Below are positions 1,337 through 6,104 of a stretch of DNA of 7,551 bases, in pieces. The notes beneath the pieces are model-generated. The model ran no database searches and was not told the DNA's origin. It was given only the letters and a program-made list of their open reading frames with translations. The translations under genes and the position numbers were made by a program. How positions within the stretch are numbered: the first letter of the stretch is position 1; each line of letters opens with the position of its first letter. This stretch comes from a virus (taxonomy: Monodnaviria > Loebvirae > Hofneiviricota > Faserviricetes > Tubulavirales > Inoviridae). The stretch covers positions 1 through 7,551 of IMG/VR virus record IMGVR_UViG_2565956711_000002; one strand, given 5' to 3'.

Positions 1337-3220
1337 TCACGCAGTCAGAATGATACGCAGCGAAATAATGCCCCAGATAAGCAGGAATACCGCTTTCAGA
1401 AGTGGCCTGATTTTTTCCAGAAGCTCGCAGTGAGAATCAATGGAATATTTATTGTCCCAGAGTTCGAACGACCATACCGGACACTGAACATCCTTCGATG
1501 AAATACTCAGGTTTTTAATGTCCGGCATTAATTCTGTAATTGGCTTGAGAATTTCCTCACCTGTAGGCGGTTTTTCAAGTTCCGGCGATTTAATGCCGGG
1601 GTCTTCGCCTAAATCAACAGAAGTATCGGTATCTGTGCCTGTACCAGGGTGTACACCTGTATCCGTTCCCGCACCGGGTCTGGCATTAACCCACGACTGA
1701 GGAACGACAACCGGACTATAAAGCAAGCCCTTATCAAGTTTTACGCCAACAGCATTAGCCGCAGCCGTCAGTTCAGCCGCCGTAAAAGGTTTATCAAGCG
1801 GTATCCCCTGATATCCTTCCTGAACAACAGTCTGACCTGCAAGGCCATTAATAAGATTAACCAGCGCAGCCGGGTTTAACTGTTCCTCCGGCTTGAAATC
1901 TATATTATCAATAACCTCGCCATTAATTACCTGAGGTAAATTTGATGTATCAAATTCTGTATTAAAAAATATCTGGTCTTTAACATCCTGAACATCATTC
2001 GTCGTTTTATACACGGCCTTCTCAGGGTGGCAAATACTTTTCCACTGCGTTTTGGGATTATCAGCCGTACTGCCCGGCGCAGGTACTTTCTCGCTTTTAC
2101 ATAAATCCCATGAGTTTTCAAGCGTAACCGTTGTTGTTCCAACAGATAAAACCACAGTTACAATCGATGAATATCCACCAAAATAAGGATTCGGCTTTTC
2201 ATACTGAAAGTCTTTAACGGAAACCGAATAAACCTTAAAATTTCTTGGCATCCTGATATGTAAGTTATTGTCGTCAGACGCCTCATGATAAGTCACATTG
2301 GAATGAGAATAACCATTAATCGACTTATAAAGCGCAATCATTACCGGATTATCACTGACAAGTACAGCATCGCCCTTTGCATCCCTGATATCAGTCGAAT
2401 AAGGATATTTAGTACCCTTAACTGACACACGATATACATCATTCGGTAATGGCTGGCTTATCGGCGGTGGTGCATCAATATTGTAATAGGTTGGCGCAAT
2501 CTGAACAGGTTTAACCTGATGATTATAAGGGCTTATCGAGTCCTGAATATTCTTCGCAGAAAAGCCAGTAGCATCAGAGGGCAAATAAACAGCAACAGGG
2601 CTTTTAGGTGAAGGTGCAACAGAAGAAGTAACAGTAGCGCCATTGGACAAATTAAGTAAATAAGTTCCATCATCCTGTTTTATTCCACTTGTAATATATT
2701 CAACAGCTTTTGCGCCCTGCTTTAAAGCAAGGTCAGCAACGGAAATAACACCCGCAGCCTGCCCCAGCAATCCCCATGTTGTCTGTCCGGCAGCCATCAT
2801 ATTACTGCCAAAACTTGAAATACCCGTGGATATCGAATCGTCAATTGTATGCTTCGCAAGGCCATAAGCAGCCGCGAAAACTGACGTTCCGGTGCAAAGC
2901 TGAGGATTACCCACTTTCTCGCCACACATGCGGATTGAATCAAAAACGTCAGGACGTTCGCGTATAACCTCCGCAGCGACAGCGATACCCGCGCCCATAC
3001 CGAGAGAACTGGCACCCGTTGCGAATACACGCCCCGCAGATTGAGAAACAACCTGAGCTTCACGGGTTTCAACCATTTGCTGAATTACACGTCCAAATCC
3101 GTCTGCTGTTACTGCATCAGCATGTACACCGGATGAAACCAGTAAAGACAATATAGTAATACCTAACTTTCCAGACCCTGAATGACCGCCCAGGCGCATA
3201 AAAGCCCCCATAAAAAACAC
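1337..3220 (-). CDS. pIII-like adsorption / minor coat protein (large, 627 aa by longest ORF)
   Basis: N-terminal signal-peptide-like segment (hydrophobic core ITILSLLVSSGVHA). A Gly/Thr/Asp-rich linker (PGAGTDTGVHPGTGTDTDTS). C-terminal SID motif plus hydrophobic anchor (YSIDSHCELLEKIRPLLKAVFLLIWGIISL), comparable to the Ff pIII C-terminus (YEFSIDCDKINLFRGVFAFLLYV). Start is ambiguous: in-frame GTG at 3218-3220, ATG at 3209-3211, and ATG at 3197-3199 (the last preceded by a GGGGG run). Confidence 0.7.
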   Translation of the reverse strand: MFFMGAFMRLGGHSGSGKLGITILSLLVSSGVHADAVTADGFGRVIQQMVETREAQVVSQSAGRVFATGASSLGMGAGIAVAAEVIRERPDVFDSIRMCGEKVGNPQLCTGTSVFAAAYGLAKHTIDDSISTGISSFGSNMMAAGQTTWGLLGQAAGVISVADLALKQGAKAVEYITSGIKQDDGTYLLNLSNGATVTSSVAPSPKSPVAVYLPSDATGFSAKNIQDSISPYNHQVKPVQIAPTYYNIDAPPPISQPLPNDVYRVSVKGTKYPYSTDIRDAKGDAVLVSDNPVMIALYKSINGYSHSNVTYHEASDDNNLHIRMPRNFKVYSVSVKDFQYEKPNPYFGGYSSIVTVVLSVGTTTVTLENSWDLCKSEKVPAPGSTADNPKTQWKSICHPEKAVYKTTNDVQDVKDQIFFNTEFDTSNLPQVINGEVIDNIDFKPEEQLNPAALVNLINGLAGQTVVQEGYQGIPLDKPFTAAELTAAANAVGVKLDKGLLYSPVVVPQSWVNARPGAGTDTGVHPGTGTDTDTSVDLGEDPGIKSPELEKPPTGEEILKPITELMPDIKNLSISSKDVQCPVWSFELWDNKYSIDSHCELLEKIRPLLKAVFLLIWGIISLRIILTA

Positions 3221-3284: not shown

Positions 3285-3533
3285 TTAAGCGCCACGAACC
3301 ATACGCAAAATCCAGCGGACACCCGCAGAACCTGCATACAGAACAATAAGAGAACCCGCTACCGCCATAATTCCGGTCAGAACGGAACCGAAATTAACGC
3401 TGTTAGTCAGTGGCGTAAGGTCAATACCTTTACCACCAACAACATCACCTTCAGCAGCAAATACGGCAGGTGCAGCAACTGCCAGAGTAAAAGCACCAAT
3501 ACGGGTTAAAGCCTGTTTAGTCTTAACAAACAT
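3285..3533 (-). CDS. Major coat protein pVIII
   Basis: 82 aa. Signal peptide ending AVFA followed by AEGD (Ff pVIII has FAAEGDD at its cleavage site). Mature part has an acidic N-terminus, a hydrophobic span (VLTGIMAVAGSLIVLYAGSAGV) and a basic C-terminus (RWILRMVRGA). AAGGAG Shine-Dalgarno 6 nt upstream of the ATG at 3531-3533. Confidence 0.88.
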   Translation of the reverse strand: MFVKTKQALTRIGAFTLAVAAPAVFAAEGDVVGGKGIDLTPLTNSVNFGSVLTGIMAVAGSLIVLYAGSAGVRWILRMVRGA

Positions 3534-3544
3534 AAAAACTCCTT

Positions 3545-3814
3545 TTATGCATTTCTTACGTGTTTAAGAATTTCACCTATTCCCTTTGCAAAGAGCCACA
3601 GGAAAAAGGTTGTCGTAAAAGCCAGCCCCCAGAATTGCGCCGCGACTGAATAATCAATATCGGGAACAGGCTTATCCTGAGAAACTACCGAAGACTGTAA
3701 TTTAGCCACTTCTGACTTCGGTAATTTCAAAGTCACTTCATCGCATCCGTCAGGGCTACCAAAACTCATATTCGGATTGCAGTATTTTGTCCTGATGATT
3801 ACCTCATCTGACAT
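3545..3814 (-). CDS. Small membrane protein in the g7/g9 position (function unknown; possible virion cap or assembly protein)
   Basis: 89 aa. Soluble N-terminal part with two Cys, then a C-terminal hydrophobic span (FWGLAFTTTFFLWLFAKGIG) and basic tail. Its stop TAA (3545-3547) abuts the pVIII Shine-Dalgarno; its start is 17 nt after the ssb stop. No family recognised from sequence. Confidence 0.45.
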   Translation of the reverse strand: MSDEVIIRTKYCNPNMSFGSPDGCDEVTLKLPKSEVAKLQSSVVSQDKPVPDIDYSVAAQFWGLAFTTTFFLWLFAKGIGEILKHVRNA

Positions 3815-3831: not shown

Positions 3832-4122
3832 TCATTCTAATAATTCAAGCAGCATATCAACGTTATACCCTTTAGACTGCTCACCTGTTTGCTTATCAGT
3901 GTATGGGAAACTCCGTTCATAACCAGTAATGCGGCAATGTACATCGGTAATTTCATCACCAATACGGCCTAGTGATTTCTTTGATTTAATACGAATGACA
4001 GGCGGAAAGCTATAAGCATCAGCCGCAGGAGAAACAATTGTTGTATAATAAAAACCGCCACTATTATTAAAACGTTTAATCTTTCCGGTAACAGTAGTTT
4101 CTAAATTAAGTAAATTACTCAT
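3832..4122 (-). CDS. ssDNA-binding protein, SSB/PriB-like OB-fold (functional analog of gV)
   Basis: 96 aa, immediately downstream of rep (16-nt gap) with an AAGGTG Shine-Dalgarno. Motif pattern recalls bacterial SSB: VTGKIKRF..NSGGFYYTTI against SSB LVGNLGQ..NGGAVANITLAT, and ITGYERSFPYTDKQTGEQ against SSB IEGQLRTRKWTDQSGQ. Assignment is by position plus this motif resemblance. Confidence 0.6.
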   Translation of the reverse strand: MSNLLNLETTVTGKIKRFNNSGGFYYTTIVSPAADAYSFPPVIRIKSKKSLGRIGDEITDVHCRITGYERSFPYTDKQTGEQSKGYNVDMLLELLE

Positions 4123-4138
4123 AATAACACCTTATATT

Positions 4139-5254
4139 CTATGCAACTCGTAAATGAGACGGTTTTACATACCACGATGGAATAACACAATCAGACACTT
4201 TAATCTCTCGCGTTTGCTTGACAACAACAGGAGAGAATTTCGAAACATTACATTTTTGCGCAATGTCAATACCAATCTTGCGGAGTCTTGCCCGATGAAT
4301 ACGCACTTGATTTTTACTTAAATCAAAAATATGACCATGAAACCATTGGATCGCGTACATAGCTGTAGTATTAGCTGCCCGTGTAGTTTCAACTATTCCA
4401 CGGGTAATAAGATGTTCACTAATAGTTTCAAAATCCATAGCATTCACCGATAACTTTTCATCAAGCGCCAGAAAATCAGAATGTAACTTATTTAACACAG
4501 AATAATCAGATAACCCCCAAAAACCTAGAGAGTGTTTTTGAATAAAACGAGACTTCAATTTTTGTTCAAATCTGACTATTCCATTTTCCTTACAATAATC
4601 AATCACACTAACAATATAATTAAACTCTTTTGACTGCTCAGAGAATTTATTTTTTATTTTTAATAAACTATGTAACTCAATCTCATGTGACTTATTATAT
4701 ACAGTCGGATAAATAAGATTAACATTCCCTTTTTTAGACAACCAGTCAACAGATTTACCGTTTGAATGCAACCGTGGTACACTATTCCTATAGGGTTGAG
4801 TCGAAAGCCCTGAAATATAATCATCCTCATTCCCTTTGCCAACAGATTTATTAGATGTTATGTGAAGCTCTTTAATTAACGCCCCATCACTGACCATATG
4901 AGCTTTTTCGGTTTCTTTAGACTGACCGGGCATTAAACGAGTGCATTTTGTAAAAAAAGGCAATTTAAGATCAAGAAGGATCTTATTGAAAACCATAACG
5001 CAAGCATCAACGGTAGGTAAGCCAAATAAATTATCAAGCCGCCCCCACCGCGAAGGGTTGCCCGTCATTTTTAGAACAGATCCACGGATAGAAATAGAAA
5101 CGACATCACAGAAAGATCCCCGGTGCTGAAAAGTTGGCTGAGAAAGCGCACTAACCTCACCACTTTCAAGATGAATACGCTGGTAAGCAACATCCGAGAG
5201 AATAGGAAGTTGAAAGCCGAAATCCTGTTCAATACTTAACCAGTCGAAGAACAT
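4139..5254 (-). CDS. Rolling-circle replication initiation protein, filamentous-phage gII (CRI) family
   Basis: 371 aa. Segment GIVRFEQKLKSRFIQKHSLGF resembles Ff pII GLVRFEARIKTRYLKSFGLP. First gene of the minus-strand operon, with a strong promoter-like element upstream. Gene is visibly AT-rich. Confidence 0.85.
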   Translation of the reverse strand: MFFDWLSIEQDFGFQLPILSDVAYQRIHLESGEVSALSQPTFQHRGSFCDVVSISIRGSVLKMTGNPSRWGRLDNLFGLPTVDACVMVFNKILLDLKLPFFTKCTRLMPGQSKETEKAHMVSDGALIKELHITSNKSVGKGNEDDYISGLSTQPYRNSVPRLHSNGKSVDWLSKKGNVNLIYPTVYNKSHEIELHSLLKIKNKFSEQSKEFNYIVSVIDYCKENGIVRFEQKLKSRFIQKHSLGFWGLSDYSVLNKLHSDFLALDEKLSVNAMDFETISEHLITRGIVETTRAANTTAMYAIQWFHGHIFDLSKNQVRIHRARLRKIGIDIAQKCNVSKFSPVVVKQTREIKVSDCVIPSWYVKPSHLRVA

Positions 5255-5295
5255 AGCGCCCTTTCTTAGATTCTCAGAAATTATTTCATGGTGCT

Positions 5296-5324
5296 TTTAT
5301 AAGACCTGAGAAACTAAGTGTCAA
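5296..5324 (-). promoter_or_regulatory. Putative sigma70 promoter for rep
   Basis: On the minus strand: -35 TTGACA (plus coordinates 5319-5324), 17-nt spacer, -10 TATAAA (plus coordinates 5296-5301). Predicted transcription start is roughly 35 nt upstream of the rep ATG at 5254. Confidence 0.45.
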
Positions 5325-5350
5325 CATTTCTAAGAATTTAGAGATATGAT
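5322..5350 (+). promoter_or_regulatory. Putative divergent promoter for the 62-aa ORF; its -35 overlaps the rep -35
   Basis: -35 TCAACA (5322-5327), 17-nt spacer, -10 TATGAT (5345-5350). GAGG Shine-Dalgarno at 5367-5370, ATG at 5378. The 10-mer ACATTTCTAA (5325-5334) overlaps the -35 and spacer. Confidence 0.35.
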
Positions 5351-5377
5351 GCAAGGCTAGCAGAATGAGGAAAGAGC

Positions 5378-5566
5378 ATGCCTACAAAGCACATAAACGA
5401 TGTTCAATGGCGAAAAATAGAGAAAGAAACCGTTAGAGCGGTATCAACCCTAGCTGTTCCAGTTAAAGATACCAAAATGCTCGAATGGATAATCGCCAAA
5501 GGGCTAGAGACGATCACAGAAGACGACTACCGCAAGTTCCTGAAGACAGAAAGCAAAAAAAAATAA
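5378..5566 (+). CDS. Hypothetical small protein (62 aa), candidate phage regulator
   Basis: Good Shine-Dalgarno (GAGG, 7-nt spacing) and ATG. Transcribed divergently from rep, the position taken by repressors in lysogenic filamentous phages. Charged protein with a lysine-rich C-terminus; no recognisable motif. Confidence 0.5.
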   Translation: MPTKHINDVQWRKIEKETVRAVSTLAVPVKDTKMLEWIIAKGLETITEDDYRKFLKTESKKK

Positions 5567-5581
5567 GCGAGCAGGAAGAAA

Positions 5582-5636
5582 ATACGGGAAACCGTACTAA
5601 AGTTCGGGTGTCACAGAACCCCGAACCGCTTCGCGG
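5582..5636. other. Cluster of three short GC-rich stem-loops between the two small ORFs
   Basis: TACGG-GAAA-CCGTA (5583-5596); GTTCGGG-11 nt-CCCGAAC (5602-5626); CCGC-TTC-GCGG (5626-5636). No U-run follows on either strand, so this is not a classic intrinsic terminator. Confidence 0.3.
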
Positions 5637-5758
5637 CGAAAAAACGAACAACAGCAGAGCTTGCGAAATCGGAATTAAGATAAGCTGGACGTCAAACGAT
5701 TAAACAAAAATACGCCATTATGCAAAGATCAAATGACACACTCTAAAAGGTATAGGTA

Positions 5759-6025
5759 ATGAACAAAGACCAGATAATACAGGTACTTAATGAAACAGAG
5801 AATGACAGCCCCGTAGCAAGAGCAGAATTAGCAAGATTCCTCGTAAAAACAATCTACAATTTTGTAAAAATGGAGAGGCCAGAAGGTGAAGGTCTGGACG
5901 GACGTGATGGCCCAGAAAGGCGCAGCATGGGAAAAATTGTAGATGCGGCAGAAAACCACTACTTTAACATGATAAAAGAAAGCCATGAAAAACAGGGAAT
6001 TGGAAGAAGAAACCCTGAGGAATGA
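5759..6025 (+). CDS. Hypothetical acidic protein (88 aa), accessory gene next to the att site
   Basis: ATG at 5759 with AAAGG about 8 nt upstream; stop TGA at 6023-6025, 6 nt before the dif-like site. Highly charged, soluble-looking composition; no family recognised. Confidence 0.45.
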   Translation: MNKDQIIQVLNETENDSPVARAELARFLVKTIYNFVKMERPEGEGLDGRDGPERRSMGKIVDAAENHYFNMIKESHEKQGIGRRNPEE

Positions 6026-6031
6026 CGCCCT

Positions 6032-6058
6032 AATGCGCATAATGACGTTATGCTAAAG
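6032..6058 (+). other. dif-like XerC/XerD recombination site (prophage att junction)
   Basis: AATGCGCATAA-TGACG-TTATGCTAAAG compared with E. coli dif GGTGCGCATAA-TGTATA-TTATGTTAAAT (recalled): each arm matches at 9 of 11 positions, with a divergent, apparently 5-nt, central region. Located next to hipA, where chromosomal dif lies in E. coli K-12 (recalled). Confidence 0.7.
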
Positions 6059-6059
6059 A

Positions 6060-6096
6060 GGCAGCTGCGGGGAGAAATTCTCGCAGCTGCCTTTTT
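6060..6096 (+). terminator. Intrinsic terminator (10-bp GC-rich stem plus T5)
   Basis: GGCAGCTGCG (6060-6069) pairs with CGCAGCTGCC (6082-6091) around a 12-nt loop, followed by TTTTT (6092-6096). Lies downstream of the 88-aa ORF but on the far side of the dif-like site. Confidence 0.6.
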
Positions 6097-6104
6097 GACA
6101 TATG

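Follow-up and report, generated by a model that had tools for sequence, protein, structure and literature searches.

A conserved three-hairpin element upstream of rep as a candidate plus-strand origin of a dif-integrating filamentous prophage

The inovirus record IMGVR_UViG_2565956711_000002 (7,551 nucleotides (nt), analyzed at its full length and hereafter called the window) is a dif-integrated filamentous-phage prophage with its phage genes on the minus strand, and because the filamentous-phage gene set sits on that strand, the window minus strand is the virion strand. Here, we describe a conserved element of about 56 nt containing three hairpins (window 5581–5636, hereafter E). On the virion strand E is placed some 330 nt upstream of rep, a gpII-family gene. 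An earlier model-generated reading of the sequence alone (the sequence-only reading) had already noticed the hairpin cluster, and had pointed out that filamentous phages place their origins and packaging hairpin upstream of the rep gene. We propose, with a probability that we put at roughly 0.55, that E is the core of the plus-strand (viral-strand) origin and carries the nick site of the phage Rep. The stems of E pair and covary, its orientation and position are fixed, it is the one segment conserved together with rep, and its geometry matches that of the Ff (f1/M13/fd) and IKe origins. Beyond what the sequence-only reading had described, E is a widely conserved module, and it also resides in an insertion sequence (IS) that targets dif and carries defense genes, which is the unexpected part of our findings.

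A conserved cluster of three hairpins

On the virion strand, E reads 5' to 3' as a GNA-loop mini-hairpin (CCGCGAAGCGG, of the d(GCGAAGC) type), a 7-base-pair (bp) stem with the 11-nt loop GTTCTGTGACA, a 3-nt TTT spacer, and an 18-nt hairpin; we number the hairpins in the opposite, window orientation. Hairpin 1 (5583–5596, functional strand read as minus) has the sequence TACGG-GAAA-CCGTA. In the register shared by the family (5581–5598) it consists of a 7-bp stem and a 4-nt loop, represented in the window by an A5581-T5598 pair, a mismatch at 5582/5597, and then TACGG/CCGTA around the GAAA loop (TTTC on the virion strand). Hairpin 2 (5602–5626, minus strand), the candidate nick-site hairpin, is composed of GTTCGGG (5602–5608), the loop TGTCACAGAAC (5609–5619) and CCCGAAC (5620–5626), and hairpin 3 (5626–5636, minus strand) of CCGC-TTC-GCGG.

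The three adjacent GC-rich stem-loops of the sequence-only reading, one with a GAAA loop, are all present in the sequence, and the check that it had suggested, single-stranded DNA (ssDNA) folding of both strands, yielded minimum-free-energy folds that contain all three. Relative to 200 shuffles, the folding energies of the two strands have z scores of −1.91 and −1.96, with 7 and 9 of the 200 shuffles folding equally well. At only about 1.9 standard deviations past the shuffles, thermodynamics alone would therefore not place the hairpins beyond chance. Two open reading frames (ORFs), 5485–5703 on the plus strand and 5514–5651 on the minus strand, overlap the cluster, and neither is conserved as coding sequence because the flanks diverge directly outside E; we read the hairpin region, as had been claimed before, as non-coding in any credible frame.

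A blastn search of window 5255–6230 against phage records matched only positions 5579–5635, and the flanks had no similarity. The matches include the annotated 'major intergenic region' of If1 (88% identity) and Alteromonas phage phiAFP1 (93% over 41 nt). We found E in about 40 inovirus contigs or prophages, and the same short segment matches about 440 enterobacterial plasmids, with 427 places on E. coli plasmids. The exact 17-mer GGGTGTCACAGAACCCC is present in 27 inovirus-sized IMG/VR contigs, and a looser sequence pattern recovered further loop variants. Scanning a single genome of each species brought in copies from Yersinia, Serratia, Erwinia, Pantoea, Lelliottia, Neptuniibacter and others, along with chance 17-mer matches in unrelated taxa in which the flanking arms are missing.

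In a gap-free alignment of 36 distinct copies of E, 91.2% of cells are paired compared with 81.4% in shuffles, and none of 500 shuffles reached the observed value. A slid control, in which the 3' partner was moved by 1–3 columns, left 25–44% of cells paired, and the covariation score was 0.349 against 0.175. Judged by these comparisons the hairpins are not a product of chance, because E matches If1, phiAFP1 and hundreds of plasmids whereas its flanks do not, and because of these pairing and covariation statistics.

Hairpin 1 pairs in 90% of cells and shows both-sided changes at five of its seven pairs. Its stem occurs as ACCGTGG, GTACGG, GTATGG, GTGCGG, GTGTGG, CCCCGG and other variants that keep the 7 bp, and its loop is mostly GAAA, with GAAT, GATT, GTTA, GTAA and GGTTGT also found; we read the constraint on hairpin 1 as one on structure, not on sequence. 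The AAA linker between hairpins 1 and 2 is invariant. In hairpin 2, five pairs never vary and one shows a compensatory exchange, GTTCGGG/CCCGAAC versus GTCCGGG/CCCGGAC (UA 27 : CG 8), and its loop variants on the virion strand (GTTCTGTGACA, GTTCAGTGACA, GTTCAGTGACT, GGCCAGTGACA, GGCCAGTAACT, TTCTAGTGACA and TTCCAGTGACA) fit the consensus C-W-G-T-R-A-C. Hairpin 3 is found in most family members (76% paired) and is missing in the GTCC/GGAC subgroup and in phiAFP1. One locus, L006, has a mismatched hairpin 2 stem, which we rejected as a nick-site hybrid since it is a single base off the stem of L005 and a point mutation is the simpler explanation.

Co-inheritance with rep

Nearly all phage contigs with E encode a Rep homologue 50–99% identical to that of the window, at a distance of 200–740 nt and in divergent orientation. 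Without exception, E runs antisense to the phage genes and sits upstream of rep, on the far side of a small antisense gene, the putative regulator. The window element is 88–93% identical to those of If1 and phiAFP1, while the Reps are only 50–80% identical and the flanks cannot be aligned; on these comparisons E is under strong selection. The complete phage (the unit of 7669 nt in E. coli PEC148) shares nucleotide matches with relatives whose Reps are 50–69% identical only in rep and in E. The structural (coat and assembly) genes of E-sharing phages are often unrelated, with little or no detectable similarity, which fits the exchange of modules published for UPPhi and YpfPhi (PMC7307601), and the promoter/operator region next to rep is completely different among relatives. 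With only rep and E matching and both the structural genes and the operator region variable, we therefore identify E as the conserved cis site of the replication module.

A second gpII lineage (L008, L032, L066 and L111; Pfam Phage_CRI 1e-73) also has E, in the same layout, which we count as further support for the link between E and Rep. Over the C-terminal stretch that could be matched, the textbook gpII-type Rep of this lineage has no more than 27% identity with that of the window.

Four loci have two copies of E each: L019 (565–581 and 7874–7890), L127, L143 and L163. L019 and L163, with spacings of 7309 nt and 7669 nt between the copies, are tandem prophage arrays. In L143, from Erwinia, the copies are 3556 nt apart and neither Rep nor transposase was detected, a layout that may reflect an array of small modules or satellites bearing E. 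L025 and L027 carry a window-type pI gene only about 660 nt from E, with no Rep detected, and may be deleted or hybrid prophages.

A candidate plus-strand origin

The sequence-only reading had offered a Rep nick site, a minus-strand origin and a packaging element as possible functions of the cluster. We favor the Rep nick site because E is inherited with rep and not with the structural genes, because it has the geometry of the Ff and IKe origins, and because it occupies the position of the CTXphi ori(+); the other two options are disfavored, as discussed below. In f1/M13, the nick hairpin AGTCCAC-GTTCTTTAATA-GTGGACT is followed by ct and then by TGTTCCA-AAC-TGGAACA, and the IKe record has two annotated 'viral-strand origin' stem-loops of 27 and 18 nt, AGTCCAC-TATGTTTAATA-GTGGACT and TGTTGCA-TTT-TGCAACG. 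The viral-strand origin of these phages is intergenic and lies upstream of gene II on the virion strand, as E lies upstream of the gpII-family rep, and the partner protein and the window Rep (4139–5254; Pfam G2P_X_C 1.7e-24, Phage_CRI 1.3e-4) both belong to gpII Pfam families. The f1 nick hairpin and hairpin 2 each combine a 7-bp stem with an 11-nt loop, and the two loops, GTTCTTTAATA and GTTCTGTGACA, are identical at 8 of 11 bases. Overall dimensions are 25 + 3 + 18 nt for E and 27 + 1 + 18 nt for IKe. The second hairpin of Ff and IKe (17–18 nt) starts 1–3 nt after the first and is the Rep-binding inverted repeat, and hairpin 1 occupies this position in E.

In the mechanism that we propose, the gpII-family Rep would bind E on the replicative form and cut the middle hairpin in its loop, on the virion strand, near window positions 5612–5614 (minus strand). 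By analogy with f1 the nick is predicted at 5613|5612, and by analogy with CTXphi at 5614|5613 (G^T). Primed by the resulting 3'-OH, rolling-circle synthesis would proceed across the regulator gene, then rep, then the structural genes. E would also terminate and re-ligate the displaced strand, and where prophages stand in tandem or side by side, synthesis would span the distance between one E and the next.

Several observations weigh against a plus-strand origin. G.T wobbles are about equally frequent on the two strands of the 36 copies, and the alignment therefore does not tell which strand is functional. When M13, IKe, CTXphi and G4 were searched with a covariance model of E, none of the Ff, IKe and CTXphi origins was recovered in the register that we propose, and the likeness to Ff is therefore only architectural apart from the 8/11 loop match, which chance could produce at a rate of roughly 1e-3 to 1e-2. 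The best non-self match of the model (12.4 bits, E-value 0.12, not significant) falls in the M13 intergenic region (L161 310–382, M13 5709–5781) on the minus strand, just 5' of the nick hairpin and in a different register. The two Rep lineages, for all that they are 27% identical over the matched C-terminal stretch, have almost identical copies of E, as would be expected too if a conserved host factor read the site. Hairpin 1 stem types (ACCGTGG, GTACGG, GTATGG, GTGCGG and CCCCGG) are scattered over the Rep tree. Such scatter would be unexpected of a repeat that Rep binds by its sequence and agrees with a role for structure only; as these types do not track Rep similarity, hairpin 1 is unsupported as a Rep-specific recognition sequence. 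E is also maintained in a transporter IS that has no Rep. Finally, a literature search for the E sequence, or for origin mapping in If1, CUS-1, YpfPhi and UPPhi, returned nothing relevant, and we found no biochemical or genetic origin mapping in the literature for any member of the E family.

The element inside transporter insertion sequences

The plasmid copies of E lie inside IS1202-family transporter IS, annotated ISNCY and related to ISSen13 and ISKpn21. This family inserts 3–6 bp from the XerC arm of dif or pdif (PMC10132070; bioRxiv 10.1101/2022.12.17.520857). In complete copies (L004 4375–7175, L036 6323–9120, L158 and L149) the order is dif, a left inverted repeat with two 17-nt repeats, the transposase, a spacer of about 130 nt, E, a passenger gene, a half-attP segment (about 95% identity to the first half of attP in the phage), and the right inverted repeat. 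Such IS are common on IncF and IncHI conjugative plasmids and are also found beside chromosomal dif. We rejected the idea that IS-linked copies of E are single-strand initiation (ssi) sites of plasmid leading regions, as they are internal to the IS.

The IS passengers are defense genes, including Shedu SduA, SIR2 (PDC-S25/ThsA-like), a ThsB-like TIR and AbiJ-NTD4/DUF7014, and IS copies that share one backbone carry different passengers after E. Comparing L126 and L073 with L036 and L006 revealed passengers shared beyond the IS: L126 (Yersinia rohdei) has the same SIR2 gene after a full E, with no IS flank and no phage gene detected beside it, and L073, an inovirus contig with a pI homologue, has a Shedu-like gene after E. 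These loci suggest an accessory-gene hotspot between E and attP, with contents that phage and IS have in common. The IS-borne element is partly degenerate, with hairpin 1 cut at the loop and an A.C mismatch at the first hairpin 2 pair, as expected if the full constraint on E depends on Rep.

E and a half-attP thus bracket defense genes both in the phage and in an IS on hundreds of conjugative plasmids, and this shared bracketing suggests a testable route by which defense genes could move between filamentous phages and dif-targeting IS. In a speculative extension, which we regard as rather doubtful, E–cargo–attP would be a mobile cassette format of filamentous phages and dif-targeting IS. The IS copy of E would be kept as a Rep-recognized initiation or termination site, and a resident or incoming inovirus could copy defense genes (SIR2, Shedu, TIR, AbiJ-like) out of or into the IS by rolling-circle replication between two E sites combined with Xer recombination at the attP-like end. 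If this were true, dif would be a trading post for defense genes among phages, plasmids and chromosomes.

Alternative functions

One alternative, which we consider unlikely, is that E is the minus-strand origin, its hairpins recruiting host primase or RNA polymerase to make the primer on virion ssDNA coated by single-stranded DNA-binding protein. High conservation of E across Reps that are 27–50% identical would fit a conserved host enzyme, and a constraint on hairpin 1 that concerns structure only agrees with folding of ssDNA. In Ff and IKe the minus origin is directly adjacent to the plus origin, and the canonical virion-strand loop of E holds CTG, the primase start triplet, with a stable GCGAAGC hairpin on its 5' side, loosely like stem-loop I of G4. 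However, the CTG is lost in many loop variants, such as GTTCAGTGACA and GGCCAGTGACA, and neither inspection by eye nor the covariance model detected similarity to G4 oriC; on these grounds we rejected a G4-type primase ssi site, and the primase form of the minus-origin option is disfavored with it. We also rejected an RNA-polymerase-dependent minus origin of the Ff type, as E lacks two long hairpins presenting −35/−10-like duplexes. Its hairpins measure 11–25 nt, against 53 and 29 nt for the minus-origin hairpins of IKe, and a promoter scan of 5100–6300 gave a single match at 5321–5350, with no sigma-70 promoter and no −35/−10 site in E. Moreover, a site read by a host enzyme need not travel only with rep, yet E does. 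In Ff, the region after gene IV holds the packaging signal and the minus origin; in this phage that region lies outside the window, and we rejected it as an alternative location for an origin or packaging signal for want of significant structure (z = −0.02) and of conservation.

It also seems improbable that E acts as a plus-strand RNA element, that is, as a structure for 3'-end formation, processing, stabilization or insulation, placed between the accessory gene and the regulator or transposase gene upstream of it. The arrangement of genes would suit such a role, as in phages and IS alike a plus-strand ORF always stops a few bases before hairpin 1 and another ORF begins 40–400 nt past hairpin 3. 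The loop of hairpin 1 is in most cases a GNRA-like GAAA, the hairpin covaries as an RNA helix would, and G.U pairs are common on the plus strand. But C.A mismatches on the plus strand (G.T on the minus strand) are frequent too, the hairpin 1 loop can also be GTTA, GATT or GGTTGT, and an Rfam 15 scan at E-value ≤ 1 of the window, If1, phiAFP1 and one plasmid copy gave no match in E. The near-invariant stem and loop of hairpin 2 are atypical of terminators or stabilizers and point instead to sequence-specific recognition by a protein. No T-run or U-tract follows any of the three hairpins on the plus strand, and for this strand the earlier statement that the cluster does not look like a terminator stands; on the minus strand, hairpin 1 with its T-rich tail was flagged as terminator-like in the window. 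The A-run upstream of hairpin 1 (in the plus sense) is present in only about half of the relatives.

We hold it to be very unlikely that E is the packaging signal, a virion-strand hairpin recognized by the assembly proteins for which hairpin 1 would be the natural candidate. The phiLf signal is a GC-rich hairpin of 20–26 nt with T/C loop bases directly beside the origin hairpins, and the form of hairpin 1 in many relatives (virion strand ACCGTGG-TTTC-CCACGGT) is reminiscent of the phiLf consensus. Against this, E is common to phages whose structural and assembly genes are unrelated or very divergent, hairpin 1 sequence correlates with neither the structural module nor Rep, and the same phage has a stronger candidate in the forked hairpin of attP (z = −6.8). 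The packaging option of the sequence-only reading is disfavored for the first of these reasons.

There is similarly little chance that E serves mainly as a recombination boundary, the left edge of an exchangeable E–cargo–attP cassette at which crossovers swap accessory genes among phages and IS. Modules to the left and right of E do reassort freely (window/L031, L007/L014/L019/L025, L008/L066/L073), IS with the same backbone differ in the passenger after E, and the same SIR2 and Shedu genes follow E in phage-type and IS contexts. Yet any conserved block of 50–60 nt acts as a site for homologous recombination with no need of a dedicated function, and the covarying hairpins and the invariant loop would be left unexplained; recombination at E is also compatible with an origin function and may be its consequence. 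An integron attC site was rejected because the arms GTTCGGG/CCCGAAC are in the wrong order and off the consensus (RYYYAAC ... GTTRRRY) and because E precedes the cargo rather than following it.

The prophage and its attachment site

The minus strand of the window encodes a Zot/pI-like gene (1–1035), a pVI-like gene (1039–1326), a pIII-like gene (1337–3220), the major coat gene (3285–3533), a small protein gene (3545–3814), an ssDNA-binding-like gene (3832–4122) and rep (4139–5254), whose product is the proposed nicker of hairpin 2. Next to rep is a divergent promoter/operator region with inverted repeats (5255–5377), which is hypervariable among relatives and therefore not the conserved cis site of the replication module. 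Nested inverted repeats of the TTCTCAGAAAT type at 5265–5340, between rep and ORF62, are probably operators of the divergent promoters; the equivalent region is wholly different in relatives, and the immunity region of CTXphi is likewise variable. ORF62 (5378–5566, plus strand) is a small antisense ORF of 62 amino acids between rep and E, in the position of CTXphi rstR, with no match in a Pfam search and homologues in few relatives only. The accessory slot between E and attP holds a putative gene, ORF88 (5759–6025, plus strand), and is filled in relatives by other genes, including SIR2 and Shedu defense genes. The layout is attP, accessory gene, E, antisense regulator, promoters and rep, and hipA occupies 6229–7551.

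The window contains the first half of a CTXphi-type attP (6033–6102), with the dif-like site ATGCGCATAATGACGTTATGCTAAA at 6033–6057, a GC hairpin at 6060–6091 and the start of a second arm. A complete attP is found in the PEC148 tandem prophage (L163 5105–5205), where two inverted dif-like sites, the second being TTTTCAACATAACGAGTCACACATTATGCGCACC, surround a GC hairpin, and where attP joins the XerC arm of dif next to hipA. The complete site folds as a forked hairpin (−31.6 kcal/mol), which by this predicted fold implies ssDNA integration at dif by XerCD. In place of the second attP arm the window has, at 6103–6152, the right end of an IS1202-family IS, followed by AATAT and then by the K-12 sequence whose usual place is 5 bp away from the dif XerC arm. 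Over 6103–6157 the IS end comprises two 17-nt repeats, GACATTTCTAA(C/T)GAGCC, and closes in TTGACA. With the second attP arm replaced by the IS end, the window prophage is therefore probably not excisable by Xer recombination.

A near-identical prophage, L020, provides the DNA to the left of the window (7665–9953). Beyond gene I it has a pIV secretin gene and then the right end of a second IS1202-family transporter IS, with a 467-amino-acid transposase and a DUF6904 passenger, which abuts AGTGCGCAGG at the left junction of the phage.

Comparison with known origins

The G4 ssi site and E both present three short GC-rich hairpins on virion ssDNA. The G4 hairpins are longer, differently arranged and without sequence similarity to E, and a stable GAA(A)-loop hairpin stands beside a CTG in both G4 and canonical E, although this CTG is not conserved in the E family.

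For phiLf of Xanthomonas, a GCGNAGC hairpin has been located in the mapped origin (bioRxiv 10.1101/2023.12.30.573655). A 120-nt phiLf fragment with the nick hairpin, the GCGNAGC hairpin and a GC-rich packaging hairpin constitutes the origin and packaging signal, and E is a similarly compact run of the same kinds of small hairpins. The order of the parts differs, the phiLf nick motif CTTG and its superfamily I type of Rep are unlike those of E, and E matches the phiLf packaging consensus GGX(A/-)CCG(C/T)G only loosely.

The ori(+) of CTXphi lies in ig-1, between attP and the antisense rstR gene, and its nick falls between a G and a T of an apical hairpin loop (PMC4439123). E has the same place on the map, between attP and an antisense repressor or regulator gene and upstream of rep. 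Both are clusters of short hairpins, the CTXphi nick falling at an apical-loop G/T, and in both the origin region is conserved next to a variable repressor/operator module. CTXphi also resembles this phage in its forked-hairpin ssDNA attP, its integration at dif and its tandem arrays. In contrast, RstA has no BLASTP similarity to the window Rep, the CTXphi nick hairpin CCCCCGT-CTAGTATT-ACGGGGG has an 8-nt loop compared with 11 nt in E, and the CTXphi ori(+) is 167 bp long and needs HU, whereas E is about 56 nt. All that ig-1 shares with E is the 9-mer CTGTGACAC (L162 3603–3611; window 5608–5616 on the minus strand, in the loop and stem of E), which in CTXphi comes about 20 nt after the nick hairpin and may be shared by chance.

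E differs from the Ff origin in its unrelated stem sequences, in having no A+T-rich enhancer domain, in its position between antisense genes rather than in a long non-coding intergenic region, and in the extra GNA mini-hairpin on its 5' side. The Ff nick motif CTTTAATAGTGG is absent from E, and a search for the Ff-type motif GTTCTTT^AATAGTGG as a 14-mer with up to 3 mismatches found no match in If1 or the complete PEC148 phage; that no such motif occurs elsewhere in these two genomes counts in favor of E as the origin. Ff and IKe have the nick hairpin in common, whereas their second hairpins differ in sequence and yet stay paired, and the E family shows the same pattern. If E is a plus-strand origin, it would be a cis site of about 56 nt for the replication module of If1, of YpfPhi/UPPhi-type prophages of E. 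coli and Yersinia, and of phiAFP1-like marine phages. It would be directly testable, and usable for phagemids and as a sequence tag for finding prophages. The Ff-type design of a nick hairpin with an adjacent hairpin would then persist even where Rep is barely recognizable as gpII.

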